Notes: a model not told the origin generated them from the letters alone. Counted from the first letter of the stretch, positions 5,832 to 63,887 are shown. The stretch is DNA of 64,000 bases from a virus (IMGVR_UViG_3300014059_000005:32001-96000); one strand, 5' to 3'. Translations and numbers: made by a program.

Positions 5832-6683
5832 ATGTTCGACCGTGCAAGATCGGGGCAGACTGTATACTTCACGATGGTTTCTGCCTTGAGCGGAAATCCG
5901 GTAGCAGGTATTGCCTCGGGCAATATCTCGGGACGACGGTGTATCGATGGTGGTGCCCAGACCGTCTGCTCAGGGCCAGTTATCGACGATGGGGGTGGAC
6001 AGTACCATCTCAACGGCTTTGCCCTCGATTTCGATGGCAACAATATCGGCTTCTATTTCACGGCCTCCGGCTGTGTCCCCGTATCCCTCATGGGGATTAC
6101 CCAGCAGAACGTCTCAGGCAAGCTCTATCCTGCCAGTGGTGCCTACATCGCTAGTGGGATCAATACCACGGTTCCAACCTCCAGTATATCGGGGACGGTA
6201 TTCGCCTCCGGTGGCAACGTGACGGTTCCGATCTCCAGTATCTCGGGAGTCGTCCCGGTCTCGGGAGCCACGGTTACGGTTCCGATTGCTAGTATTTCTG
6301 GTACGGTATTCGCCTCGGGTGGGAATGTCATCGTACCAATAGCAAGCATCTCCGGGGTGCAGATCGCTTCGGGGTCCTCCACCATCGGGACTCTGTTCTC
6401 GGGGACCGTCTCCACCAATACCTACGCCTCTGGTGTGCTCTCCTACACGATCCCCAGGAATACACTCCTGTTCGACTATACCAATCTCTCGGGCAACGTG
6501 GCCTCCGGGATCTCGGGGCGGTGTCTTCTCAACGCTACCCGCAAGCTCATGAACAAGTTCTCCTTCACCGATGTTTCTGGCTACCTCTCGGTCTATCAGG
6601 AGGACGACGCTCTGCTGGCCTTCCAGCAAGCAACCACATCGGCCAGTGGGGCAACACCTGTAACATCTTTGGATACCCGATGA
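5832..6683 (+). CDS. Ser-Gly-rich virion protein with VTVPIASISG repeats
   Basis: ATG at 5832 after GGGAG; four ~19-aa internal repeats; C-terminus paralogous to 4691-5245. Confidence 0.7.
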   Translation: MFDRARSGQTVYFTMVSALSGNPVAGIASGNISGRRCIDGGAQTVCSGPVIDDGGGQYHLNGFALDFDGNNIGFYFTASGCVPVSLMGITQQNVSGKLYPASGAYIASGINTTVPTSSISGTVFASGGNVTVPISSISGVVPVSGATVTVPIASISGTVFASGGNVIVPIASISGVQIASGSSTIGTLFSGTVSTNTYASGVLSYTIPRNTLLFDYTNLSGNVASGISGRCLLNATRKLMNKFSFTDVSGYLSVYQEDDALLAFQQATTSASGATPVTSLDTR

Positions 6684-6692
6684 GAGGGAATC

Positions 6693-7142
6693 ATGACTAT
6701 AGGCTATTCTGGACTGCGAAATGAACTACTCACCGATCCCTTGAATGTAGGGTACGCGAGTTACATTTCTGGAGCACATCCGGGCAACGATCGTATGTTG
6801 GCCGATCTGGTCAACTCCGTGCAATCCGGGTCCAATGTGTTCCGTGATGACATTACTCCCAAGGAAGTGATCCAGAGGATCCTTCCAGCGGATTTCGCCG
6901 GGATGTCCCAGATCCAACTTTCCCGATTGAATGTGTTGTTCCAGTCGGCACCGATCGACACCACAATCCCCAATATTCGGCAATCGTTCATGGCGGTATT
7001 TTCAGGAGGTAGCTATTCTGGCACCATCAACTCTCTGAACCAGATGTCTCGAAGGGAGGGGACCCGAGCGGAAGTCCTGTTCGGTGCCAATACCGTGGTC
7101 GGGCAGGGCGATATTTCTTTCGCCCTGCGGGGGGTAAAGTGA
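6693..7142 (+). CDS. Hypothetical virion protein
   Basis: 149-aa ORF with GAGGG RBS; LRNELLTDP..GY and RAEVLFG motifs. Confidence 0.65.
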   Translation: MTIGYSGLRNELLTDPLNVGYASYISGAHPGNDRMLADLVNSVQSGSNVFRDDITPKEVIQRILPADFAGMSQIQLSRLNVLFQSAPIDTTIPNIRQSFMAVFSGGSYSGTINSLNQMSRREGTRAEVLFGANTVVGQGDISFALRGVK

Positions 7143-7143
7143 C

Positions 7144-7587
7144 ATGCCGCAAACGGTCAACTATATCCAGAGTGGGGCAATCACCGTTCTCATGTCTGGG
7201 GAGTTGGATTCCCTGGCCAACAACGGGACAGCCGCCTCTCTGGTGGATTTCAACAACGCCTCGGGCTATCCCCTGGCGTACATCGAATTCACGGGTCCTC
7301 CCCGGTCATATACCGCCAGCACGGGCCTGTCCGTGTGGTTCTTGCAGGCGTTCACCTCGGGGCAGTACGAGGATGGGTCATTGACCACCTCGGGTATGGC
7401 CAATCGACTACCAAACATCACCATTCCGTTCAATTCTGGTAGCCAGCGGGTGATCCGGCAGTGTCAGATCCCCAACCAGTGGTTCCGCACTCTGGTGAGC
7501 AATGCCGGTACTGGGGTGGCTCTGGGAACCTCTGGTAATATTCTTCGTATCTACCCTCTGACCTATCAGATTTCTTCCGGAGCGTAA
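7144..7587 (+). CDS. Hypothetical virion protein
   Basis: 147-aa ORF tightly packed in the operon; ELDSLAN motif. Confidence 0.65.
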   Translation: MPQTVNYIQSGAITVLMSGELDSLANNGTAASLVDFNNASGYPLAYIEFTGPPRSYTASTGLSVWFLQAFTSGQYEDGSLTTSGMANRLPNITIPFNSGSQRVIRQCQIPNQWFRTLVSNAGTGVALGTSGNILRIYPLTYQISSGA

Positions 7588-8799
7588 ATGCTGCTGGCTC
7601 CCGGTATCGAATCTTGCGATCTGGGGTTCCTGGATTTGATGAATCCAGTGAACGTCAACTCATCTCTGAACCAGGGGTTGGTTTCCCGTTGGCAGGTCGT
7701 TCCTGGTCTGGAGGGGACCAATTTCTGGTATGACCTGTGCGGGAGAAATAAGGGCACGCTGACAAACGGGCCGACGTGGGACGGGGCGACAGGTCGGCAG
7801 GGTGGTTCAGGGTCGGTCAGGTTCGACGGGTCGAACGACCGCGTACAACTGGCGTCGGCGTCCTACTCCGGGGCACAGGGATCGGTGAGTGCCTGGGTGC
7901 GCCCTTCCGGGGTAACATCGGGGACGCTCGCGGCGTTCTTCGGCGTGGGGGGTTCCGGGACGGGGCAATGGATCCTGTCCCTGCGCCCCAGCGGGAGTTT
8001 GTACCGGCTGGAGTTCTACCAGAAGTCCGACGCGGCAGGAACGACCAACTTCCTCATCAACGCCGGCAACTACACCTACCCCGACGGGGCGTGGATTCAC
8101 CTGACGGTCACGGCGAACGGCTCGGCGTGGAACCTGTACGAGAACGGCAAGATACAGCCCGGCGCCTGGATCGTGGTGACGGGGTCGAACGCCGGGACGT
8201 GGATCGGATCGACCACGATAGCCTCGGCAGTCGCGACGGTCGGATCGACCTATGTGAGCGGATCGTATTTGTACCCCTTCAAGGGGGTCCTCGACGATGT
8301 TCGGGTCTGGGAACGCGCCCTGTCCTCCGGCGAGGCGAAAGCCGTCTATGAGGACTCGCGGGCGGGAAGCCCGCAGACGCTGAACTGGATCAGTCCCTAC
8401 TACGTTCCCAGGCAGTTAACGGCCCAGGAGCCAGTCCCCGGCGATGTGTATGGATTGTTTGGTGGCGGAGACTTTACCGGCATCCAGATGGGTGTCCCGC
8501 CCGAAGCCATCGCTGCTGTTGGCGGCTACCAGGGTCTTTTGGACTTCATCGGTATTCCTTATGGATTACCCTCTCAGATCACACCCTCCGCAGGCAACCA
8601 GGCGGCAGCCCGGAGGAGATTCTATCGCCATGTAGTCATGCACCAGACCTATCGGAGTATTCTCGATCACAGTAGGATGACCGAAGTTGCGCACCTGGCA
8701 CTGGTAAACCGTATCGCGAACCAGTGGAACGAGTACCAGGCACAACTGGCGAGGTCCAGGGAAATCGCCATTTTTGCGACCTTACTGTCGGAGGTCTAA
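7588..8799 (+). CDS. LamG/concanavalin A-like domain virion protein
   Basis: FDGSNDRV...SVSAWVRP...WIHLTVT...LYENG...FKGVLDDVRVWERALS LamG_3 signature. Confidence 0.85.
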   Translation: MLLAPGIESCDLGFLDLMNPVNVNSSLNQGLVSRWQVVPGLEGTNFWYDLCGRNKGTLTNGPTWDGATGRQGGSGSVRFDGSNDRVQLASASYSGAQGSVSAWVRPSGVTSGTLAAFFGVGGSGTGQWILSLRPSGSLYRLEFYQKSDAAGTTNFLINAGNYTYPDGAWIHLTVTANGSAWNLYENGKIQPGAWIVVTGSNAGTWIGSTTIASAVATVGSTYVSGSYLYPFKGVLDDVRVWERALSSGEAKAVYEDSRAGSPQTLNWISPYYVPRQLTAQEPVPGDVYGLFGGGDFTGIQMGVPPEAIAAVGGYQGLLDFIGIPYGLPSQITPSAGNQAAARRRFYRHVVMHQTYRSILDHSRMTEVAHLALVNRIANQWNEYQAQLARSREIAIFATLLSEV

Positions 8800-55867: not shown

Positions 55868-56122
55868 TCATGGTGATGTGGGCGTGCTAGATTGTGAGGG
55901 GTTGAAAGGGGATAAGGGGCTGGGATCTTCGGGTCCTGGCCCCTTATTATTTGTCTTTCTGAGGACAAGACGAAATCCGTAGTAGTCGGAGAGTGCCCTT
56001 GACACATTGTAGTTGCGATAGCAAGAGTAGGCGTTCGATGGTTGATAGGATAACGCACCGCCTCGGAGCAACCGGAACGGTCTCTGAGTGAGAATCGGTT
56101 TGGGTCTTGCGATAAGGATCAT
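55868..56122 (-). CDS. Variable CLec/FGE mini-cassette N (C-terminally extended)
   Basis: MILIARPKPI...LLRGGALS...YSCYR...YGFRLVLRK. Confidence 0.75.
   Translation of the reverse strand: MILIARPKPILTQRPFRLLRGGALSYQPSNAYSCYRNYNVSRALSDYYGFRLVLRKTNNKGPGPEDPSPLSPFNPSQSSTPTSP
55912..55952. terminator. Hairpin terminator at the convergence of the two transcription units
   Basis: ATAAGGGGCTGGGATC-TTCG-GGTCCTGGCCCCTTAT, 16-bp stem with cUUCGg loop, followed by TATTT. Confidence 0.75.
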
Positions 56123-56295
56123 GGTATTCTCTTGCGGAGAATTATCCGGAAGCCCAAGAAGTCGATCCGGTCCGTAGGCCCGGCCCAGTCACGGTTCGCC
56201 GACCGACAAGATAGACTGCGGTAGTACCAGCCACCGCCCTGTAGCACCCGGTAGGAGCCATCGATGATCGGTCTAGATCTAGCAATCAGGATCAT
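56119..56295 (-). CDS. Variable CLec/FGE mini-cassette M
   Basis: MILIARSRPIIDGSYRVLQGGGWYYRSLSCRSANRDWAGPTDRIDFLGFRIILRKRIP; ATGA overlaps. Confidence 0.8.
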   Translation of the reverse strand: MILIARSRPIIDGSYRVLQGGGWYYRSLSCRSANRDWAGPTDRIDFLGFRIILRKRIP

Positions 56296-56483
56296 TTATC
56301 CCTCTTTCTGAGGATTACTCGAAAGCCCAGACCACCACAGCGAAAACTTTCCGGGTTCCAGATTCTATGCCACGAACTGGATCGCCAGACCATGCTCTGG
56401 AAGCCGCCACCTCGGATGGTATGGGAAACACACTGGGAAGCGATCAGGGACACCAGGGTCCCTGATCGCTTCACCAGAATCAC
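56292..56483 (-). CDS. Variable CLec/FGE mini-cassette L
   Basis: GTG start overlapping the scaffold stop; TIRGGGF...LGFRVILRKRDK. Confidence 0.75.
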   Translation of the reverse strand: MILVKRSGTLVSLIASQCVSHTIRGGGFQSMVWRSSSWHRIWNPESFRCGGLGFRVILRKRDK

Positions 56484-57298
56484 TGGGAGCCTCCGGACTC
56501 TCCAGACTCCCGAAGGGCCTTTTCTGCCGCCTCGACTTCCTTTTTGTACCTCTGGGCATCATAGAGGCAGGCACACCACTCCCAGACGTTGCCGTGCATG
56601 TCGTAGAGGCCAAAGGCATTACAGGGATAGGATCCCACCGGGGTGGTCCGGTTGATCTTCTCATCGAAGTTGGCCATGTCGTGGGTCAGAGTGCTGCCAA
56701 AGGTGTAGGCGCTCCGGGTGCCGCCTCGACAGGAATACTCCCACTCGTACTCGGTGGGTAGTTCGTAGTAGTATCCCTTGGCGATCTCCTCGGGCAGTTC
56801 GGAGAGTTTCTTGCAATACTCCTGGGCGTCGTGCCAGGACACATTTTCCACGGGGTGGCCGGGGTGCTTGAAGGACGTGGATGGATTGGTGCTCATCACC
56901 TTCTCCCACTCCCTCTGGGTAACGGGAAAGGTCCCCATGTACAGACCTTCCATCTGCACCAGGTGCTGGGGACCTTCATCGGAATGACGATGGGGCTCAC
57001 TGTCCGGAGAGCCCATGACATTGATGCCGGGAGGAGTGACCTTGAATTCCATGCCGATCGAGTTGACGATCCTTGGCATGACCACCGGGACCTTTTCCAG
57101 GAGCATGGCCTGGATCTGCTTCTCCACCTCGGGATCGTAGGAATCCGGATCGAGTTGGTTCAGGGTCATCCGTAGGAGTCGTGCGGATTGCTCCCGACCT
57201 TCTTCGATCAGGGCATCGGTGAGGGCAAACCACCCCGTGGTGTCATTGGGGTCGATGGTGAGAGCGTGCAGGATCGAATCGGTGTCGGTGAAGGCCAT
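56480..57298 (-). CDS. TIGR02996-like domain + FGE-sulfatase (CLec fold) scaffold lacking the C-terminal variable segment
   Basis: ILHALTIDPNDTTGWFALTDALIEEG; NSIGMEF..PPG...MGS; PVTQ; PVENVSW.DA; LPTEYEWEY.CRGG; NAFGLYDMHGNVWEWC, then a charged helix and stop; own AAGGA RBS. Confidence 0.9.
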   Translation of the reverse strand: MAFTDTDSILHALTIDPNDTTGWFALTDALIEEGREQSARLLRMTLNQLDPDSYDPEVEKQIQAMLLEKVPVVMPRIVNSIGMEFKVTPPGINVMGSPDSEPHRHSDEGPQHLVQMEGLYMGTFPVTQREWEKVMSTNPSTSFKHPGHPVENVSWHDAQEYCKKLSELPEEIAKGYYYELPTEYEWEYSCRGGTRSAYTFGSTLTHDMANFDEKINRTTPVGSYPCNAFGLYDMHGNVWEWCACLYDAQRYKKEVEAAEKALRESGESGGSQ

Positions 57299-57487
57299 AG
57301 TGGACTTTCCTTGTGTAAGGGACTTACGGAGAACACGAAAACCAAAGAAGTTGTACCAGTTTGCTGGTTCACAGGCGTTTCGGTACGTCAACCGGCAATA
57401 CATCGCAAGAGATAGCCAGCAACCACCTCGAAATATCCGATATGGGGAATCGGGGTATGTTGTTCGCAAGGTAGTGGTGAGAATCAT
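57299..57487 (-). CDS. Variable mini-cassette K, fused in frame to the scaffold N-terminus
   Basis: MILTTTLRTTYPDSPYRIFRGGCWLSLAMYCRLTYRNACEPANWYNFFGFRVLRKSLTQGKST, no stop before ATG 57298. Confidence 0.75.
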
Positions 57488-57663
57488 TTCTCTTTTTTCT
57501 TTCTGAGAGCAACCCGGAAGCCCATGTCGTTGTATCGTAATGTTGGTCTGTACCCGATGCGGTACGACGACCTGTAGTTCCGGCCGACGCAGCCCCAGCA
57601 ACCACCCCGGCTCATCCAGAGGGAACCCTGAATGATCGGCCCAGGTTTAGCAATGAGGATCAT
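57484..57663 (-). CDS. Variable CLec/FGE mini-cassette J
   Basis: MILIAKPGPIIQGSLWMSRGGCWGCVGRNYRSSYRIGYRPTLRYNDMGFRVALRKKKEK. Confidence 0.8.
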   Translation of the reverse strand: MILIAKPGPIIQGSLWMSRGGCWGCVGRNYRSSYRIGYRPTLRYNDMGFRVALRKKKEK

Positions 57664-57836
57664 CAGCCCCTCTTTCTGAGGATTGCCCGGAAGCCCAGGA
57701 GGTTGTCCCGGAGCATCGGCACGAGCCTGAGGCAGCGTGCCGACCGGCAGTTCTGGCCGGGGCTGTACCAGCAGCCGCCCCGGATCACCTGGAAGGAGCC
57801 CTGGAGGATCGGTCCAGGTCTAGCGATCAGGATCAT
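57663..57836 (-). CDS. Variable CLec/FGE mini-cassette I
   Basis: MILIARPGPILQGSFQVIRGGCWYSPGQNCRSARCLRLVPMLRDNLLGFRAILRKRG. Confidence 0.8.
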   Translation of the reverse strand: MILIARPGPILQGSFQVIRGGCWYSPGQNCRSARCLRLVPMLRDNLLGFRAILRKRG

Positions 57837-58009
57837 CTCGACCTCTTTCTCAGGATCACCCGGAAGCCCAGATCGTGGTCCCGTTTCGGCGGCACGACCC
57901 TGCGGCGGTCCGCCGACCGGCAGTACAGGCCGTGACCGTTCCAGCAGCCGCCCCGGAACACCCGGTAGGAGCCCTGAATAATTGATTTAGGTTTAGCAAT
58001 CAGGATCAT
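57833..58009 (-). CDS. Variable CLec/FGE mini-cassette H
   Basis: MILIAKPKSIIQGSYRVFRGGCWNGHGLYCRSADRRRVVPPKRDHDLGFRVILRKRSR. Confidence 0.8.
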   Translation of the reverse strand: MILIAKPKSIIQGSYRVFRGGCWNGHGLYCRSADRRRVVPPKRDHDLGFRVILRKRSR

Positions 58010-58191
58010 TTCGATCTCTTTCTGAGGATTGCTCGGAATCCCAGGCCGTTTTCCCGATACGTTGGTGTATACCTGTGGCGGTACACCGACCGGCAGAACT
58101 GGCCGATGTTGACCCAGCAACCACCCCGGATCGTCTGGAACACCCGGTAGGAGCCCAGGGTGATTGATCCAGGTTTAGCAATCCGGATCAT
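58006..58191 (-). CDS. Variable CLec/FGE mini-cassette G
   Basis: MIRIAKPGSITLGSYRVFQTIRGGCWVNIGQFCRSVYRHRYTPTYRENGLGFRAILRKRSK. Confidence 0.8.
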   Translation of the reverse strand: MIRIAKPGSITLGSYRVFQTIRGGCWVNIGQFCRSVYRHRYTPTYRENGLGFRAILRKRSK

Positions 58192-58373
58192 TAGCCTCTC
58201 TTTCTGAGGATTACCCGGAAGCCCAGATCGTCGTACCGGAACGCTGGTCTGTATCCGATGCGGTACGACGACCTATAGTTCTCGCCGACGCAGGCCCAAC
58301 TACCGCCCCGGATCGCCCAGATCACCCAGTGGGAGCCCAGGGTGATAGGTCTAGGTCTAGCAATCAGGATCAT
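58191..58373 (-). CDS. Variable CLec/FGE mini-cassette F
   Basis: MILIARPRPITLGSHWVIWAIRGGSWACVGENYRSSYRIGYRPAFRYDDLGFRVILRKRG; GAGGAG RBS. Confidence 0.8.
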   Translation of the reverse strand: MILIARPRPITLGSHWVIWAIRGGSWACVGENYRSSYRIGYRPAFRYDDLGFRVILRKRG

Positions 58374-58450
58374 TTGTCTCTCCTCTTTCCTTGCTGTGTC
58401 ACAACTATGCACCAGGAATTCGGAAAGTCAAATGAAAATGAAGAGTTCGG

Positions 58451-58780
58451 CTACAGCTTCCTGCGGTTGCGAAGTTCCGCATCCCCACCACAGAAGCGGC
58501 ACAGCTTGTGCTTCGTGGCGCAATTGGTACAGAGCACATCCACACAGGTGTTGCCATAGTGCATCTCCGTCTTGCACATTCCACACAGGGCTACGGTACA
58601 CATGGCACCACCGATACGGCCCCGCATGTAGTGGCAAACCCGGCACATGCATTTCTTCTTGCGGATCTCCAGATCGGGATCTTCGTAGCACTTTTTGACA
58701 GAATCGTAATATGCCTGTGAATAATTCGTCGCTCTCAAAACGGCACAGAGATCCCAGGGTTTGTAGATTGGCTCTCGCAT
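58451..58780 (-). CDS. Cys-rich zinc-finger protein
   Basis: CRVC, CGMC, CTNC, CRFC pairs. Confidence 0.65.
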   Translation of the reverse strand: MREPIYKPWDLCAVLRATNYSQAYYDSVKKCYEDPDLEIRKKKCMCRVCHYMRGRIGGAMCTVALCGMCKTEMHYGNTCVDVLCTNCATKHKLCRFCGGDAELRNRRKL

Positions 58781-59382
58781 GATAATAAACTCTTGCGAAT
58801 CTTGTTCAGGGCGTTGACATGGGACTGACTCACTGCTGATCGGGACACTCCCAGGCCATCGGCAATGTCGCACAGCCGTCTACCCTTGAGGTAGTGTTCT
58901 TCCAGTACGAATCGCTGATAGGGCTTCAGGACGGACAGGAGGGACTCACAAAGATCGGCATCGTCCAGGGTTCGCTTCCAGGAGCAATCGATGACAGGGA
59001 GGGCCTTGGGGTCATAGGGGACTCGGGTGGGCAATGGATAGACGACCTTGGCCTCGAAACTGCTCTTGCTCATGGGATGGTGTAGACTGCGAATATATCG
59101 CTGTATCTGGTTGCGGACACTCCTCCAGGCGTAAGTGCCGAAGCGGACCCCATGCCTGGAGTCATAGTTCCTGGCACATCTCCAGAGTGCCACATCCGCT
59201 ACCTGGACCAGTTCCTCGTAATCGAAGCACATCCCCAGGAATCTACCGTATTGGAGTGCCTTCTTGGCCAGGATTCTGGAGACTCCACGGTTCTCGGACC
59301 AGAGTAGTTCGATCCGGAGTCTCTCTTCTTCGGCGGACTTGCTCGTGGATTCTTTCGTGGACTTGCTCGTGGATTTGCTCAT
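58735..59382 (-). CDS. Sigma-70 family sigma factor (second copy)
   Basis: EELVQVADVALWRCARNYDSRHGVRFGTYAW; LCDIADGLGVSRSAVSQSHVNALNKIR. Confidence 0.85.
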   Translation of the reverse strand: MSKSTSKSTKESTSKSAEEERLRIELLWSENRGVSRILAKKALQYGRFLGMCFDYEELVQVADVALWRCARNYDSRHGVRFGTYAWRSVRNQIQRYIRSLHHPMSKSSFEAKVVYPLPTRVPYDPKALPVIDCSWKRTLDDADLCESLLSVLKPYQRFVLEEHYLKGRRLCDIADGLGVSRSAVSQSHVNALNKIRKSLLSCESQSTNPGISVPF

Positions 59383-59401
59383 GACCGTGTACCCGAATCC
59401 C

Positions 59402-59434
59402 AAAGAGAGGGGGACACAACCGCCCCCTCTCTTT
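59402..59434. terminator. Hairpin/terminator
   Basis: AAAGAGAGGGGG-N9-CCCCCTCTCTTT perfect 12-bp stem. Confidence 0.65.
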
Positions 59435-59442
59435 CGCGAAGG

Positions 59443-59625
59443 TCACTTCTTGCTGGGTTTGGGTGCCAGTAACTTGGCGAGCAATTCCAGGGCCTTGTGT
59501 GTGGGCAATTCGGACAGGATCTTCCAGGATACGGCGTGGACTCGGGACACGTCCGCCACACCGATCTTGGTCTTCTCGGTGTCCACCTCGCTGGCCACGG
59601 CATTCTTGAACTCGGTCGGGGTCAT
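59443..59625 (-). CDS. Small basic helical protein (possibly HU-like N-terminal helices)
   Basis: MTPTEFKNAVASEV....IGVADVSRV; ATGA coupled. Confidence 0.55.
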   Translation of the reverse strand: MTPTEFKNAVASEVDTEKTKIGVADVSRVHAVSWKILSELPTHKALELLAKLLAPKPSKK

Positions 59626-60272
59626 CGGTCTATCTCGTGAGATTCAGAAGATATCTCCGGGGTCACATATTCGGTCCCGGAGTCCACAGGTCGGGTACGG
59701 ACCACGCTGCCCGTTACCAGCCTACGATTGTGGGTCACGAACAGGATCTGGAGTCCTAATTCTCTGGAGAGAGTCTCCAGGAGGAACCTCACTCGATCCT
59801 GGTATTCCTCGGAGACGAAGCGAAAGGGCTCGTCCAGGGCCAGGAATGTTCGTCTCCTGGTTCTGGATAATAACAGACAGGCCAGCCTCAGGGCAAAGGC
59901 ACTGACATCGATTACACCACCTCCACAGGACCCCAAGGGGTCCTCGACCTCTCTACCATGATCGAGAAGGGTGAGTGTAGCCTCGGTGCGGCCACGCTTG
60001 TCCTCGAAATCGATTCGCAGGGAATAGGTATCCTTGCCGAATACTGCTTCCAGGCATCTGGAGGCTATCTCGGAGACTCTACCGTGGCAGGCCTCCTGAA
60101 CCTGAACCGCAACTTCCTGGGCGATGGAGAGAGACTTTTTCAGGTGTTCCTGCTCCTGGATCAATTCCTGGGATCTGGAGGACTCACTGGAAGTATTCTT
60201 GATGGCAACCTGGTATTCCATCAGGAGAGGTCGCAATTGATTCCGATAACGATCCAGGGCGGTAGGCGTCAT
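59622..60272 (-). CDS. SbcC/Rad50-like ATPase, C-terminal half
   Basis: Coiled coil, then signature SCGGG, Walker B LALDEPF, H-loop LFVTHN. Confidence 0.85.
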   Translation of the reverse strand: MTPTALDRYRNQLRPLLMEYQVAIKNTSSESSRSQELIQEQEHLKKSLSIAQEVAVQVQEACHGRVSEIASRCLEAVFGKDTYSLRIDFEDKRGRTEATLTLLDHGREVEDPLGSCGGGVIDVSAFALRLACLLLSRTRRRTFLALDEPFRFVSEEYQDRVRFLLETLSRELGLQILFVTHNRRLVTGSVVRTRPVDSGTEYVTPEISSESHEIDR

Positions 60273-60445
60273 GAGGTTTTCTTTCTGAGGATTACCCGGA
60301 AGTCCAGATCGCTGAACCGGAACGTCGGCTCGAGCCTGCCACGGTACGCCGACCGGCAGTTCCGGCCGCTGCTGCTCCAGCCGCCGCCCTGGATCACCCG
60401 GCCAGAGCCCTGTAGGATCGGCCTAGGTCTAGCGATGAGGATCAT
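60269..60445 (-). CDS. Variable CLec/FGE mini-cassette E
   Basis: MILIARPRPILQGSGRVIQGGGWSSSGRNCRSAYRGRLEPTFRFSDLDFRVILRKKTS. Confidence 0.8.
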   Translation of the reverse strand: MILIARPRPILQGSGRVIQGGGWSSSGRNCRSAYRGRLEPTFRFSDLDFRVILRKKTS

Positions 60446-60618
60446 GGTGTTCTCTTTCTCAGGATTACCCGGAAGCCCAGGCCGTGGTTCCGAACCGCCG
60501 GCACGTACCTGTGGCAGCGTGCCGACCGGCAGTTCTGGCCGGGGCTGTACCAGCCACCGCCCCGGAACACTGAGAGGGAGCCCTGGATAATTGATCTAGG
60601 CCTAGCAATCAGGATCAT
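60442..60618 (-). CDS. Variable CLec/FGE mini-cassette D
   Basis: MILIARPRSIIQGSLSVFRGGGWYSPGQNCRSARCHRYVPAVRNHGLGFRVILRKRTP. Confidence 0.8.
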   Translation of the reverse strand: MILIARPRSIIQGSLSVFRGGGWYSPGQNCRSARCHRYVPAVRNHGLGFRVILRKRTP

Positions 60619-60791
60619 TTGTCTCTCTTTCTGAGGATTACTCGAAAGCCCCGGCTAAGATAGCGGAACGACGCAAAATATCTATAGCGGCGTGTCAATC
60701 CACAGGTCCCATAGCAGCTACGCCAACCACCACCCCGATACACTGGTTCATTTCCTTGAATGCCTGGTTTGGGTCTAACGATCTGGATCAT
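60615..60791 (-). CDS. Variable CLec/FGE mini-cassette C
   Basis: MIQIVRPKPGIQGNEPVYRGGGWRSCYGTCGLTRRYRYFASFRYLSRGFRVILRKRDK. Confidence 0.8.
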   Translation of the reverse strand: MIQIVRPKPGIQGNEPVYRGGGWRSCYGTCGLTRRYRYFASFRYLSRGFRVILRKRDK

Positions 60792-60862
60792 CTGTCTTTC
60801 TTTCTGAGGATTGCCCGGAAGGAGCCCCAGACAATCGGTCTGGGTTTGTTGATCCGGATCAT
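60788..60862 (-). CDS. Empty mini-cassette B (variable core absent)
   Basis: MIRINKPRPIVWGSFRAILRKKDR, with both ATGA overlaps retained. Confidence 0.7.
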   Translation of the reverse strand: MIRINKPRPIVWGSFRAILRKKDR

Positions 60863-61041
60863 TTCATATTCTTTTTCAGGATCAACCGCAATCCAAAGTT
60901 GTTGAACGTGGTTTGTGGAATGTACCCAACACGCCTGGCCGCTCGGCAGGGCCATTCATAGTTGAACCAGCCGGCCCCCCGAACCATGAGTTCTCGGCCC
61001 CGAAAGATCGGTCTAGGTCTAGCGATCAGGATCACGATCAT
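60859..61041 (-). CDS. Variable CLec/FGE mini-cassette A
   Basis: MIVILIARPRPIFRGRELMVRGAGWFNYEWPCRAARRVGYIPQTTFNNFGLRLILKKNMK. Confidence 0.8.
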   Translation of the reverse strand: MIVILIARPRPIFRGRELMVRGAGWFNYEWPCRAARRVGYIPQTTFNNFGLRLILKKNMK

Positions 61042-61430
61042 TTCCCCCGAAGTCTGGGTCCATATTCTTCCTCGAACCTCTGATATTCATCATCGATCGA
61101 ATCTTGCTGATGTCGTAATTGCGCAGCAAGTCTCGTCAATTCCTCCCGGGCGTCCTCCAGGGAGTTACAACCGAACTGAGTTTTCAATCTACGAAGGACT
61201 TCCTGGAGGGCTCCCTGGACCCGATCTCTTTGTCGGGTTACGGTCTCTAGTTGCTCCTGGATAGCACGGTACTCCTCTACCGTGATCCGCTTCGTGGAGA
61301 CCCCCGGTCGATCGCCGTCAGGAGGATCTCCTCCACCCTGGGGTCTTCCGGTTGGATTCGCAGTCTTTGTCTCACGGCCTCCTGATACGACGGTGGTGCG
61401 TCGGGAGCCCTTTTCAGTGTTTCCAGACAT
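61038..61430 (-). CDS. Small coiled-coil protein of the SbcCD operon (start uncertain)
   Basis: RQRDRVQGALQEVLRRLKTQFGCNSLEDAREEL coiled coil. Confidence 0.6.
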   Translation of the reverse strand: MSGNTEKGSRRTTVVSGGRETKTANPTGRPQGGGDPPDGDRPGVSTKRITVEEYRAIQEQLETVTRQRDRVQGALQEVLRRLKTQFGCNSLEDAREELTRLAAQLRHQQDSIDDEYQRFEEEYGPRLRGK

Positions 61431-62245
61431 AGATCGATCTCACCCCCCAGAACCTTCTTTGGTTTTCTGTGATCCTCGGTCAGTACATCCCTGGAGCAAT
61501 CCAGGTAGTGCGGTTCTATGGAATCATCAGAATGATAGATCCACACCCTGGGCTCGTGATCCTTCTGGTCCACGGCCAGCCGCATGAGCGAGCCGCAGTT
61601 GACCACTGGGGGGACCTTCTTCCTGGCGGCAAAGGGTATATGATTGTCCCCCACGAACACCGCGTTGTAGCCCTGGACCATACTCCGCAAGGCATCGAGG
61701 GAGTGGGACTCTGGGGCATCCTTGTATCCCGTACTGTATCCAGCAGTCCTGGTCCAGGTGTAGCGATGTACCACTGCTACTTCCTGGAGCAAGGACACCC
61801 CGCCTGTCAGTGGTTCCGGGTCCTGCCTCCAGGGGAATCCCCAGAGCCTCAGAGGGTGTGCCCCGGGAATTTCCACTGGTTGTCCAAAATGCAGAGGGAT
61901 GACCCTACCAGACAGCACCAGAGTGTGAAACGACGATCTGTGGATTTGTGCGTAACTATGATTGGGTAGGTCGTGATTACCCGCCACGGAGTAGAGTGTC
62001 GGCAGGTACTCCAGGGCGAAGTTCACCAATTCCGGGGGCGAAATGGGAATATCGAATATATCCCCACAGCAGATTACTGGCACCCGGAGAGTGTCAGCAA
62101 GGTTGCGAACCTGGAGGAGAACTCTCTTCTGAGCCTCGTACCAGCTGGGCTCCGACTGTCTGCACACAGGAGGCGTATGCGACAGATGGATATCGGCCAG
62201 GAATATCGCCACCGGAACTACAGGGTAGACCGGCAGAGCGGACAT
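61277..62245 (-). CDS. SbcD/Mre11-like metallophosphoesterase nuclease
   Basis: ADIH, CGDIFD, AGNHD, VVH, GDNH, NCGS motifs. Confidence 0.9.
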   Translation of the reverse strand: MSALPVYPVVPVAIFLADIHLSHTPPVCRQSEPSWYEAQKRVLLQVRNLADTLRVPVICCGDIFDIPISPPELVNFALEYLPTLYSVAGNHDLPNHSYAQIHRSSFHTLVLSGRVIPLHFGQPVEIPGAHPLRLWGFPWRQDPEPLTGGVSLLQEVAVVHRYTWTRTAGYSTGYKDAPESHSLDALRSMVQGYNAVFVGDNHIPFAARKKVPPVVNCGSLMRLAVDQKDHEPRVWIYHSDDSIEPHYLDCSRDVLTEDHRKPKKVLGGEIDLCLETLKRAPDAPPSYQEAVRQRLRIQPEDPRVEEILLTAIDRGSPRSGSR

Positions 62246-63135
62246 ATCTTCACTGCTTGCAGGCGGGAGTTCAGGGAGTCGATTCTCTCCTGGAGGCTTT
62301 CCTGCTCCTGGAGTAGTCCTTCTCCTTGGCCACATAGACTCTCCAACTCGTTTTTGGTATGGATGTACTCCTGGACCAGGAGTACACGATCACGAAGATC
62401 GGTCAGGGGACCGGACACGGTATCGAGAAACCCCAGGAGGTTTCGGAACTGCTCTGCGTCCCGAACAGCGTCTTCCAGGAATCGATGATGCTCGGTCTGG
62501 GTGTCCAGGGCCTCCTGCCGAGCCTGCAAGGCATCCAGGACGTCACAGGCCCCCGACACCCAGGATAGGGATTCGGAAGCCTCCTGAGCCTCCTGGAGAC
62601 GATTGCTGGACTCCAGGAGCGAGGATTTGTTCTGGCGGATTTGCTGGTTGATGTCGGTCAGGGTCTCGTCGATGGACCCCAGATCGATGATCCGGTCCAG
62701 TTCCCTGGCCAGTTGCCCCGGTGTCAGGTGGAACCAGAAGGAGGGGTCATGCTGGAGAGCAAAATTATCCTCACATAGATTCAGAATCTTTGCTACGGGC
62801 TCGGGGGCCTCGTTGGTCTTGAGGGCGTCCAGTCGCTCGCCATCGATCTCGTAGTAGTTACCTGATTTTCCATTCCCTGACTTTCCGTTGCTGGTCTTTC
62901 CCCGGTGACGGATAACTGTGTGTCCGTCGATACGAAGGGTCCCACGAACGAAGTCCGTGCCCTTGGTCCTAAAGGCATCCCCACTGGGTTTGTTATGGGC
63001 GATCCAGCGCAGGAGGCGGATGAGGCTGCTCTTGCCGGAATTGGTAGGCCCCACGATACAGGTGACGTGGGGATCCAGGTCCAGGGTCCATAAGGTGTGG
63101 GCCTGAAAGTTCTCCAGGGTGATGCTTTCTAACAA
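62218..63135 (-). CDS. SbcC/Rad50-like ATPase, N-terminal half ending at the zinc hook
   Basis: LENFQAH, Walker A GPTNSGKS, Q-loop QHD, coiled coil, terminal CPLC. Confidence 0.85.
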   Translation of the reverse strand: MLESITLENFQAHTLWTLDLDPHVTCIVGPTNSGKSSLIRLLRWIAHNKPSGDAFRTKGTDFVRGTLRIDGHTVIRHRGKTSNGKSGNGKSGNYYEIDGERLDALKTNEAPEPVAKILNLCEDNFALQHDPSFWFHLTPGQLARELDRIIDLGSIDETLTDINQQIRQNKSSLLESSNRLQEAQEASESLSWVSGACDVLDALQARQEALDTQTEHHRFLEDAVRDAEQFRNLLGFLDTVSGPLTDLRDRVLLVQEYIHTKNELESLCGQGEGLLQEQESLQERIDSLNSRLQAVKICPLCRSTL

Positions 63136-63137
63136 TA

Positions 63138-63887
63138 CTAGGCCCCCCAGCGAGCACGACGAACCAGAGGCTGTGCCCCCACGCCCAGCATCTCCCAGTC
63201 CTTTTTGGAGGCCTGGGCCTGTTCTTCGGCCCACTTGCACAGATACTCTGCCTGCTTGCTCTGGTTGAGTCCGTGAGCCTGGTAGCACAGGGCTACCGTG
63301 GCCTGGAACAGTTCCAGAGATTCATCCCGATCGCCATAGTAGACCAGATCCTTGATACGGCCCTCGATGGTCTGGACGGTAGGCTGGGGCTGGATCCTCT
63401 CCTGGATATCTTCGAGGATCTCCTTGGGATCGAAGACGAAGTCATCTGGTTCGGCATAGCCATCTTTGGGAAAGGAATCGGGCCAGCGCTTGTGGGCATT
63501 GGCGGTATCGGCAATATCATTATTGCCGTAGGCTTCCCGGGTGTCGGTATTCCAGGGGTTGCCCCTGGTGGGGACATAGAGTCTGAGTTTCTTGCCGTCC
63601 CAGTAGATGATGAAGTAGACCGGATGCTCCCAGTCTCCCCCAGCACGACAGCCCAGGATCTGGAGTCCGTTGGGGAGGACGCGATAGCCCAGGAGATCCT
63701 TGGGAGGGGTGTGATTCTCCTGATGCTCGAAGTTCTCGAAGTCGAATCTTACCTTGAGGTCGAAACTCAATCGCTCGCGGATCAGGTTGGAGTCCAGGTA
63801 GGAGTGTTGTCCATCCTGGGAGTAGAGCCTTCCGACGATCTTCTTGCGGAACTCCTCGGGAGAGATGATCGCGAAGAACCGGGACAT
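63138..63887 (-). CDS. Hypothetical protein
   Basis: 249-aa ORF with AGGAG RBS; AGGDWEHPVYFIIYWDGKKLRLYVP..GNPWN. Confidence 0.7.
   Translation of the reverse strand: MSRFFAIISPEEFRKKIVGRLYSQDGQHSYLDSNLIRERLSFDLKVRFDFENFEHQENHTPPKDLLGYRVLPNGLQILGCRAGGDWEHPVYFIIYWDGKKLRLYVPTRGNPWNTDTREAYGNNDIADTANAHKRWPDSFPKDGYAEPDDFVFDPKEILEDIQERIQPQPTVQTIEGRIKDLVYYGDRDESLELFQATVALCYQAHGLNQSKQAEYLCKWAEEQAQASKKDWEMLGVGAQPLVRRARWGA

Follow-up and report, generated by a model that had tools for sequence, protein, structure and literature searches.

Organization of the cassette array and the body gene

The phage genome, 139,665 bp long and rated as 100% complete by CheckV, includes about 38 copies of a mini-gene, of which 28 are intact mini-ORFs. 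The repeat unit is 173 nt, each unit being a mini-ORF of about 58 amino acids with an ATGA stop/start overlap. Each unit has a core of about 122 nt, homologous to the variable repeat (VR) and template repeat (TR) of the FGE-type (C-type-lectin-fold) variable proteins of diversity-generating retroelements (DGRs) from Planctomycetota, and a phage-specific linker of about 50 nt that holds the stop codon, AGAAAGAG as a Shine-Dalgarno-like sequence, and the ATG of the following unit. Every core is bordered by two conserved blocks, of 38 nt and 32 nt. The window, i.e., the whole 64,000-nt stretch of this genome that was analyzed, includes the following features.

Cassette N, 55868..56122, minus strand: degenerate 84-amino acid tip mini-ORF, the third and last cassette on the downstream side of the body (ORF list; partial nhmmer match)
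Cassette M, 56119..56295, minus strand: 58-amino acid tip mini-ORF; TR-homologous core 56147-56253 (TR-HMM hit)
Cassette L, 56292..56483, minus strand: degenerate tip mini-ORF; its GTG start overlaps the body stop (GTGA)
Body gene, 56483..57298, minus strand: TIGR02996-like N-terminal domain followed by an FGE/C-type-lectin domain (Pfam; whole-genome scan)
Cassette K, 57299..57487, minus strand: tip that lacks a stop codon and shares the reading frame of the body; core 57336-57441
Cassette J, 57484..57663, minus strand: 59 amino acids; core 57515-57619
Cassette I, 57663..57836, minus strand: 57 amino acids; core 57688-57793
Cassette H, 57833..58009, minus strand: 58 amino acids; core 57861-57967
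Cassette G, 58006..58191, minus strand: 61 amino acids; core 58034-58137
Cassette F, 58191..58373, minus strand: 60 amino acids; core 58216-58322
Cassette E, 60269..60445, minus strand: 58 amino acids; core 60297-60401
Cassette D, 60442..60618, minus strand: 58 amino acids; core 60470-60571
Cassette C, 60615..60791, minus strand: 58 amino acids; tip more diverged
Cassette B, 60788..60862, minus strand: remnant with an internal deletion (24 codons); only the conserved ends are left
Cassette A, 60859..61041, minus strand: 60 amino acids; core 60887-60990

The stop codon of cassette E overlaps the start of an ATPase gene (59622-60272). A Zn-finger-like ORF is located at 58454-58873, and a record look-up for it returned no match. 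All 16 triplets that a first-pass annotation of this DNA had quoted for cassettes D-J and M are exact on the minus strand, including TAC TAC CGC and ATC GAC TTC of cassette M.

The body gene was found as a single copy in a whole-genome scan. Its domain matches PF03781 at profile positions 7-207 of 255 (E value 7e-43) and ends at 207-208, and cassette M matches the Pfam FGE-sulfatase profile at positions 211-254 of 255, at the gathering score. The sole body is truncated, with no whole PF03781 domain in one polypeptide, and body homologues of 325-335 amino acids in Gemmataceae include body and tip in the same chain. We infer that each mini-protein would complete this one body in trans, as the C-terminal ligand-binding tip that the body lacks. 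An AF2 model of the body had pLDDT values above 90 across the body, and a fold search with this model detected resemblance to PvdO, human FGE and Treponema denticola TvpA (2Y3C). When the in-frame tip-body ORF was modeled, the body was predicted with confidence and the N-terminal tip (cassette K) had pLDDT values of 25-63 and no confident placement or docking; this prediction neither favors nor disfavors a circularly permuted domain. The in-frame arrangement of cassette K is also present in the phage loci L224 and L076. Programmed -1 frameshifting at the ATGA junctions was rejected as a general route to body-tip fusion, as it would reach the first downstream cassette only.

Variation of the cassettes at template adenines

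The hypervariable set was defined as 11 codon columns in the 28 intact mini-ORFs, and 52 long ORFs of the same genome served as background. NNY codons account for 279 of the 304 hypervariable codons (92%, versus 56% in the long ORFs; p 2e-42), NNC codons for 68% (versus 38%), and codons for K, E, Q, W or M for 12 of 304 (versus 18.5%). The first-pass annotation had warned that a general third-position C bias might explain such a pattern; the NNY and NNC values are far above those of the long ORFs in the same genome, and the bias does not account for them. The dominant residues at the hypervariable columns are Y, N, S, D and F. Of the 24 conserved nucleotide columns inside the variable core none is A, but the flanks of these mini-ORFs have A in 8 of 30 (p 0.006), and arginine is encoded by CGN in 134 of 162 cases inside the core and by AGR in 64 of 82 outside. 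In pairwise comparison of the cassettes the framework differs on average by 0.40 at four-fold sites and by 0.15 at codon positions 1-2; the slower change at the latter indicates purifying selection, and hence mini-ORFs that are or were translated.

A scan of bacterial genomes produced 120 loci, 84 of which have a DGR-type reverse transcriptase (RT) beside the TR. Seventy in-register bacterial TRs were used as a template that is independent of the cassettes, which keeps the comparison from being circular. Their length and register are the same as those of the cassettes, and their consensus, TGG AAC AAC AAC GCC AGG AAC TGC CGG TCG GCG AAC CGC AAC AAC AAC ... CGC AAC AAC AAC CTC GGC TTC CGC, agrees nearly codon for codon with the template that had been proposed from the cassettes; the AGG codon of that proposal occurs at the corresponding codon in half of the individual TRs. 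The closest TR, 89% identical at non-A positions, belongs to a Zavarzinella (Planctomycetota) MAG in which an RT adjoins the TR.

Variability per cassette column follows the share of adenine in the TRs (Spearman 0.65, p 1e-14). Cassettes and TRs mismatch at 62% of the A sites versus 19% of the non-A sites when codon positions 1-2 are compared, and the 21 HMM-aligned tips at 60% versus 12% (odds ratio 11, p 4e-74). Of the two outcomes that the first-pass annotation had named as refuting its reading, no enrichment of mismatches at template adenines and an NNY frequency equal to background, neither was observed. In template codons with a single A (AGC, AGG, GAG) the variation is mainly at the A position, and the NNY share at TR-adenine sites of the cassettes is 92-97% versus the 56% of the genome background. 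Among 70 genuine TR/VR pairs 58% of the A sites are replaced, close to the 60% of the phage tips, and 0.5% of the non-A sites mismatch. The base spectrum of the tips (A.40, T.31, G.19, C.11) resembles that of genuine VRs (A.42, T.27, G.24, C.07). Retention of A in the bacterial loci is bimodal, 0.9-1.0 in TRs and 0.2-0.5 in VRs, and all 23 TR-HMM hits in the phage genome (0.29-0.56) lie in the VR range. Some of the divergence scored as non-A may sit at adenines peculiar to the actual template. Judged by its mismatches, the pattern is a VR footprint, though without the identity of a live VR, and the reading of the variation as DGR adenine mutagenesis gains support from the independent TRs.

Template adenines mark ligand-binding positions, so part of the site correlation would be expected whichever process had diversified the sites; a DGR is told apart by codon-level features and the base spectrum alone. 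These features bear on the idea that no DGR was ever involved and that ordinary mutation, with diversifying selection for Tyr/Ser/Asn/Asp-rich sites, shaped lectin paralogues sharing ancestry with DGR targets. Ligand-binding positions would coincide with the hypervariable sites anyway, the dominant residues are those of many binding sites, and the four-fold divergence makes the copies old enough for many substitutions. On the other hand, third positions of the hypervariable codons (0.32) do not diverge more than four-fold sites, whereas A sites at positions 1-2 reach 0.64, near saturation (independent draws from the observed spectrum give 0.70 by our own calculation); in the phage locus L221 the corresponding values are 0.69 at A sites and 0.06 at the third bases of those codons. 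Furthermore, NNR codons, although acceptable to diversifying selection, are nearly absent, A is wholly avoided in the framework but not in the flanks of the same ORFs, and the spectrum equals that of genuine VRs. We consider an origin without a DGR highly improbable.

Origin of the footprint

The first-pass annotation had reported neither RT nor template in the window, and this holds for the whole genome. The complete 139,665-bp sequence has no PF00078 (RVT_1) match that would point to a DGR-clade RT, and tblastn with the DGR RT of the phage locus L074 gave hits with E>1 only; L074 itself, the positive control, was picked up by the RT search. There is no PF05635 (Avd) match at E<=1 in the phage genome, Avd not being universal among DGRs, and no TR-HMM hit in it reaches the A retention of a template repeat. 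A DGR elsewhere in the phage, one of three sources that had been suggested, is thus excluded as the writer for this complete genome.

The cassettes have also drifted. Their non-A framework sites differ at 6-15%, versus 0.5% in live TR/VR pairs, and the closest cassette pairs still differ at 6-14% of these sites; cassette I, for instance, differs from its nearest relative D at 4 of 68 non-A sites and 10 of 29 A-type sites. For cassettes D, E, F, J, K, L, M and N there are contigs from about 12 further read sets, mostly 100% identical in the cassettes even when the flanking genes have SNPs. Samples with this phage include SRR1145916, SRR8893620, SRR8893625, SRR30333719, SRR30333730, SRR31757426, DRR736411, DRR736418, DRR736432 and DRR783867; cassette L holds most of the ordinary SNPs between samples. 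A metagenome scan with cassette E, its A sites set to N, returned no alleles, and neither a metagenome scan nor a viral scan detected the phage-specific linker; these scans may have left out close records.

Given that RT, Avd and TR are absent, that the non-adenine framework has drifted and that the cassettes are stable between samples, they are probably an archive of past DGR output and not the site of ongoing mutagenesis, in line with the captured outputs considered in the first-pass annotation. The homology to DGR repeats, the footprint, the lack of RT and TR and the drift are shown by the sequence. As to which DGR wrote the footprint and when, we infer that a VR-bearing unit was duplicated and that the copies were then mutagenized by a DGR that belonged either to an ancestral phage or to the Planctomycete host that gave the TIGR02996-FGE gene; the mutagenized copies would then have been fixed as separate small genes.

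The third suggested source was a DGR of the host. The cassettes would then be live targets, with a DGR in a Planctomycete host or a co-infecting element providing RT, Avd and TR in trans. DGRs are known to have remote targets (PMC7517822), the cassette framework is closest to Planctomycetota TRs, in particular to that of the Zavarzinella MAG, and homologues of the body are found in Gemmataceae. The host is probably a member of Gemmataceae. At least three further phage lineages have similar arrays and lack an RT in the sequence examined, one such genome being complete, and the same footprint was found in the arrays of four phage lineages. The tips of L076 form a GC-rich island with 98% NNC codons in a genome of 34% GC, which is easier to reconcile with recent templated writing than with an old archive. 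However, the TR is copied in full during retrohoming, and a live target should accordingly match it at non-A sites, which even the closest cassettes do not. The homology to real TRs stops at the CGG after GGC TTC, whereas in the TR/VR pair of L074, the only pair aligned, identity runs about 30 nt beyond that CGG. The cassettes are identical in many samples, and the two variant alleles described below differ in the 5' part and keep the 3' part, the opposite of DGR polarity, with non-A changes as well. No conserved hairpin was seen in the linker (-2.3 kcal/mol, no covariation), and the 3'-flank hairpin criterion, which failed on bacterial TR and VR flanks taken together as well, has no power. 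Writing in trans at present is in our opinion unlikely.

Among 85 viral loci that encode body homologues, a self-BLAST search for TR/VR pairs revealed one true DGR, L074/L075, which is also the only RT-bearing one, and therefore most phage FGE proteins fetched do not lie beside a DGR. A scan of IMG/VR for TR-like patterns returned L074/L075 only. No relative was found in which an RT or TR adjoins an array of this type, so any donor DGR is hypothetical.

Homologous recombination among the cassettes, by unequal crossover or gene conversion, could also have generated most of the present diversity, the DGR footprint being the raw material only; tips may then come to lie beside or inside the body gene, as in silent-cassette systems. 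L223 has one extra hybrid cassette compared with the otherwise identical L224, cassettes D and I have the first half in common and a different second half, and the conserved 38-nt and 32-nt blocks flank every core. Cassette E, identical in four other samples, has a 5'-patch allele in DRR736411, and cassette I a mosaic allele in SRR8893620; both are located at contig ends, and may be assembly chimeras. Against this reading, every cassette has its own Shine-Dalgarno sequence and ATG, a stop codon separates cassette and body, and no body-tip fusion at the C-terminus was found among contigs from other read sets. Recombination as the main source seems to us quite doubtful, and we continue to favor the archive of past DGR output.

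A more general proposal is that RT-less phages keep VR-type mini-gene arrays that were written by a DGR in trans or grew by insertion of mutagenized cDNA copies as new units, either way a heritable repertoire of interchangeable lectin tips for one scaffold. We regard it as a long shot; if true, such arrays would amount to a germ-line library made by a retroelement that the phage does not encode.

Significance and relation to known systems

DGRs are known as self-contained systems in which RT, template and target are found together and diversity is only transient in populations. Here a complete phage genome without an RT keeps a DGR signature in about 38 individual mini-genes that are translatable, which suggests a second use of DGR chemistry, with outputs stored as a fixed repertoire or a host DGR borrowed. 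This raises the questions of whether a cellular DGR can act on an infecting phage genome and whether interchangeable tips can complete a lectin-fold scaffold in trans. The combination of A-site mismatch, NNY codons and a T>G>C spectrum also provides a simple sequence test for former DGR targets after loss of the retroelement.

The phage proteins share PF03781 with the FGE-type DGR variable proteins TvpA of T. denticola (PDB 2Y3C) and TaqVP of Thermus aquaticus (PMC6328139). The variation is in the same C-terminal segment, the body model matches 2Y3C, and the register, A-site positions, replaced fraction and base spectrum are those of FGE-type VRs. Unlike those systems, the phage genome has no RT, TR or Avd, its framework has drifted by 6-15%, and the variable segment exists as about 38 stand-alone mini-genes instead of as the end of one target gene.

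Paralogues of cyanobacterial DGR variable proteins, such as all3226 of Nostoc PCC 7120, have remnant TR-VR homology and no nearby RT (PMC7517822). As in the phage, VR-like segments retain the trace of a DGR after parting from the retroelement, and in both cases the idea is that diversification is turned off once variants have been selected. The cyanobacterial paralogues, however, are full-length genes of cells whose genomes have retained a DGR (PMC7517822), whereas in the phages detached tips were multiplied into arrays in complete genomes without any RT.

The orphan C-terminal cassettes of polymorphic toxins (Rhs, CdiA; PMC3482391) and the cassettes of silent-cassette antigenic variation likewise place alternative C-terminal modules near one main gene. 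In these arrays too, conserved sequence bounds the modules, and among the phage cassettes there is some evidence of recombination. Silent-cassette systems have an expression site with a resident copy, and their cassettes have no translation signals of their own. Neither feature is found in the phage: unlike in the toxin and silent-cassette arrays, its cassettes each come with a start codon and a ribosome-binding site (AGAAAGAG plus ATG), and its main gene carries no resident tip at the C-terminus that could be replaced. The diversity of the phage cassettes bears the footprint of a retroelement and not that of domain swapping.

Organization of the array and the body gene

The region 55868-61041 includes 15 copies of a 173-nt unit, located on the minus strand in three clusters. 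The majority of the units form mini-ORFs, 57-61 codons long, that follow the pattern MILIARPRPI..GS.RV.RGG.W......CRSA.R....P..R...LGFRVILRKR. At their junctions the stop codon of one overlaps the start codon of the next (ATGA), and the RKR codons (AGA AAG AGR) form a Shine-Dalgarno-like run 6-8 nt upstream of the next ATG. A DNA profile of the unit matched 42 times in the whole virus record (139,665 bp, CheckV completeness 100%, with the window as bases 32001-96000), and 28 of these matches are clean mini-ORFs. The encoded tip corresponds to positions 211-254 of the 255-position Pfam FGE-sulfatase profile. The genome includes only one body:

56483-57298, minus strand: body ORF, matching positions 7-207 of the Pfam FGE-sulfatase profile and then ending in a stop codon

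In a fold search the AF2 model of the body resembled PvdO, human FGE and TvpA. A tip is found directly upstream of the body, in frame and without a stop, in three phages (window 57299-57487, L224 4050-5108 and L076 5580-6374), which represents a possible N-terminal tip-body fusion; AF2 modeling of the tip-body ORF gave a well-folded body, with the upstream tip unplaced at low confidence. The neighboring SbcC/Rad50-like ATPase is apparently in two pieces (ORFs among 59622-60272, 61277-62335 and 62218-63288, all on the minus strand), a Mre11-like phosphoesterase gene and five tip cassettes lying between the N-terminal AAA_23 ORF and the C-terminal ATPase ORF. Its homolog in the marine contig L219 is a single 710-aa ORF.

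The adenine footprint and real templates

The first-pass annotation had likened the variation among cassettes to the adenine mutagenesis of diversity-generating retroelements (DGRs), and the codon triplets on which it relied were all found exactly as quoted. When the 28 mini-ORFs were aligned by codon, 279 of the 304 codons in the 11 most variable columns had the form NNY, as compared to 56% in a background of 52 long ORFs of the same genome (p 2e-42); NNC made up 68% versus 38%. Lys, Glu, Gln, Trp and Met, none of which has an NNY codon, account for 12 of the 304 variable codons versus 18.5% of the background. None of the 24 conserved nucleotide columns within the variable core is an A versus 8 of 30 in the flanks of the same mini-ORFs (p 0.006), and of the Arg codons, 134 of 162 within the core are CGN and 64 of 82 outside it are AGR. 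The NNY/NNC excess, the A-free conserved core and this split of Arg codons show that the pattern is real and is not the general C bias of the genome that had been raised as a caveat.

Since the template inferred earlier was derived from the cassettes themselves, making any comparison with it circular, real template repeats (TRs) were sought. The viral contig L074 harbors a classic DGR with variable region (VR), TR and reverse transcriptase (RT) in a row, in which 95% of the mismatches are at TR adenines. Scanning one genome per prokaryotic species with a 24-nt TR-like core revealed at least 120 loci, many of them belonging to Planctomycetota, cyanobacteria and Verrucomicrobiota. Among the matches listed, a homolog of the DGR RT adjoins the match in 84 of 120 loci, and 70 sequences share the cassette register, ungapped, from CGN GTG to GGC TTC CGN. 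The consensus of these 70 listed TRs nearly equals the template that had been inferred. The variability of each cassette column tracks the frequency of A in the TRs behind this consensus (Spearman 0.65, p 1e-14), and the mismatch between cassettes and consensus at the first two codon positions is 62% for A sites versus 19% for non-A sites. When 21 tips were aligned to the TR profile, the expected enrichment of mismatches at template adenines was borne out (60% versus 12%, odds ratio 11, p 4e-74), and 97% of the AAC-type codons were NNY. At the single-A codons of real TRs (AGC, GAG, and AGG in about half of the TRs) the cassettes vary mainly at the A.

The comparison was extended to live DGRs using 70 distinct TR/VR pairs with no more than two non-A mismatches, taken from the bacterial loci among the matches listed. 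In these pairs 58% of the TR adenines are replaced, the VR base at those sites being A.42, T.27, G.24 and C.07, and non-A mismatch is 0.5%. In the phage tips 60% of the A sites are replaced, with A.40, T.31, G.19 and C.11. By the fraction of A retained, the bacterial loci listed are bimodal (TRs, 104 sequences, 0.9-1.0; VRs, 78 sequences, 0.2-0.5), and every one of the 23 phage hits falls at 0.29-0.56. By replaced fraction, base spectrum and A retention, therefore, the cassettes look like VRs in every measurable A-site respect and none of them is a template. Neither RVT_1 nor an Avd-type protein had a match in the 139,665-bp genome, and no DGR RT was found there by tblastn below E = 1; the suggestion of a DGR elsewhere in the phage is thus excluded as far as the complete assembly allows. 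With RT, TR and Avd all absent the array is not itself a DGR, and it passes as a set of DGR-type VRs by fold, register and footprint.

Stability of the cassettes and related arrays

Any two of the 21 tips differ on average by 0.64 at A sites, with 0.70 expected by our own calculation for independent draws from the observed tip spectrum. The third base of AAC-type codons gives 0.32, and the framework gives 0.40 at four-fold third positions and 0.15 at positions 1-2; the slower change at framework positions 1-2 than at the four-fold ones indicates that the encoded peptide is under purifying selection. In the 15 closest cassette pairs 6-14% of the non-A sites differ, and A-type positions, which make up 30% of the sites, account for 69% of the differences. 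Because retrohoming copies the whole template, this framework drift means that it is long since the copies were last rewritten from a common TR.

Contigs of other sequencing runs that encode exactly the neighboring ATPase or the body served as a stand-in for read mapping. Most carry identical cassettes D, E, F, J, K, M and N, and one strain differs by six SNPs in flanking genes, with cassettes D and E unchanged. Most of the differences between runs are transitions, and they cluster in the degenerate cassette L. Cassettes E and I have one variant allele each, differing in a 5' patch that includes non-A changes; polarity and spectrum are both wrong for a DGR, and these alleles suggest recombination, or they may be chimeras formed during assembly at contig ends.

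Similar arrays were found in other phages. L076, a complete 43-kb phage, has a truncated body and six tips, and its tip array (6374-7862) stands out as an island of 51% GC against 34% for the genome, with 98% of AAC-type codons being NNC. The marine contigs L219 (4043-6243) and L221 (9742-12746) include 6-8 mini-genes, mostly of two tips each (one to four in L221), and after them a truncated body of 152-153 aa; their arrays adjoin SbcC-like and/or Mre11-like (Metallophos) genes, the same neighborhood as in the window. L223 and L224 are relatives of the window phage with more degenerate tips. In the available sequence of these five, among which only L076 is a complete genome, no RT was found. 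The footprint of the L219, L221 and L076 arrays is even cleaner than that of the window (A-site mismatch 0.51-0.61 versus 0.06-0.12 at non-A sites; NNY 93-100%). Ordinary mutation and selection cannot yield the contrast seen in L221, where the difference is 0.69 at A sites and 0.06 at third bases of the same codons.

L223 and L224, from different samples and otherwise identical, differ by one extra cassette (L223 7231-7413) that is a hybrid of its two neighbors, which points to unequal crossover within the array. Many L223 mini-ORFs (385-564, 2034-2380, 6667-7813) keep the conserved ends (MILIPKP..., ...FRIxMRK) and have lost the inner lectin-tip motifs; a separate constraint may act on these ends or on their nucleotide sequence. 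The tip profile matched 611 small proteins of a public collection. GC-rich phages (L013, 7851-8864 and 8545-9969; L048; L056; L025) have two tandem tips in an FGE gene, the first out of frame and read as a low-complexity linker and the second in frame. The out-of-frame tip is possibly an alternative that a frameshift could select. Neither the complete L013 genome nor the fetched loci of the other three yielded an RT.

Possible source, proposed function and known systems

Among the matches listed, the bacterial sequence that fits the cassette profile best comes from a Zavarzinella (Gemmataceae) MAG, and the next best are likewise mostly Planctomycetota. The features of its locus are:

585-1514: RT
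1606-1727: TR, 89% identical to the cassette consensus at non-A positions

Homology to TRs is confined to a core of ~122 nt, and the linker of ~50 nt is phage-specific. Full-length body homologs are TIGR02996-plus-FGE proteins of Gemmataceae (325-335 aa) with the tip in the same chain. A plausible history would start with the splitting of a host-type variable-protein gene, followed by duplication of the tip unit along with its 3' flank; the copies would have been mutagenized by a DGR since lost or never phage-borne. The Planctomycetia MAG CAVRDP01 has one TR sequence at seven places on six contigs (L102, L116, L125, L132, L139, L145), which suggests that its DGR is multi-copy or mobile; near-identical TRs occur in two further Planctomycetaceae MAGs (L150, L163).

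Taken with the TR comparison, the codon signature, the absent retroelement, the framework drift and the stability between samples argue that the cassettes are probably archived DGR-type variable regions. They would be expressed as separate small proteins through translational coupling, and each could supply the missing C-terminal ligand-binding segment to the single body, as suggested by the split at the same domain point in several lineages, the translation signals of each mini-ORF and the framework under purifying selection. In a limited literature search, no account of RT-less phages carrying arrays of detached VR mini-genes was found. The closest known objects include the VRs of FGE-type DGR variable proteins and the cyanobacterial paralogs that have remnant TR-VR homology and no nearby RT (PMC7517822), and there is a likeness, by analogy, to the orphan C-terminal cassettes of polymorphic toxins (PMC3482391).
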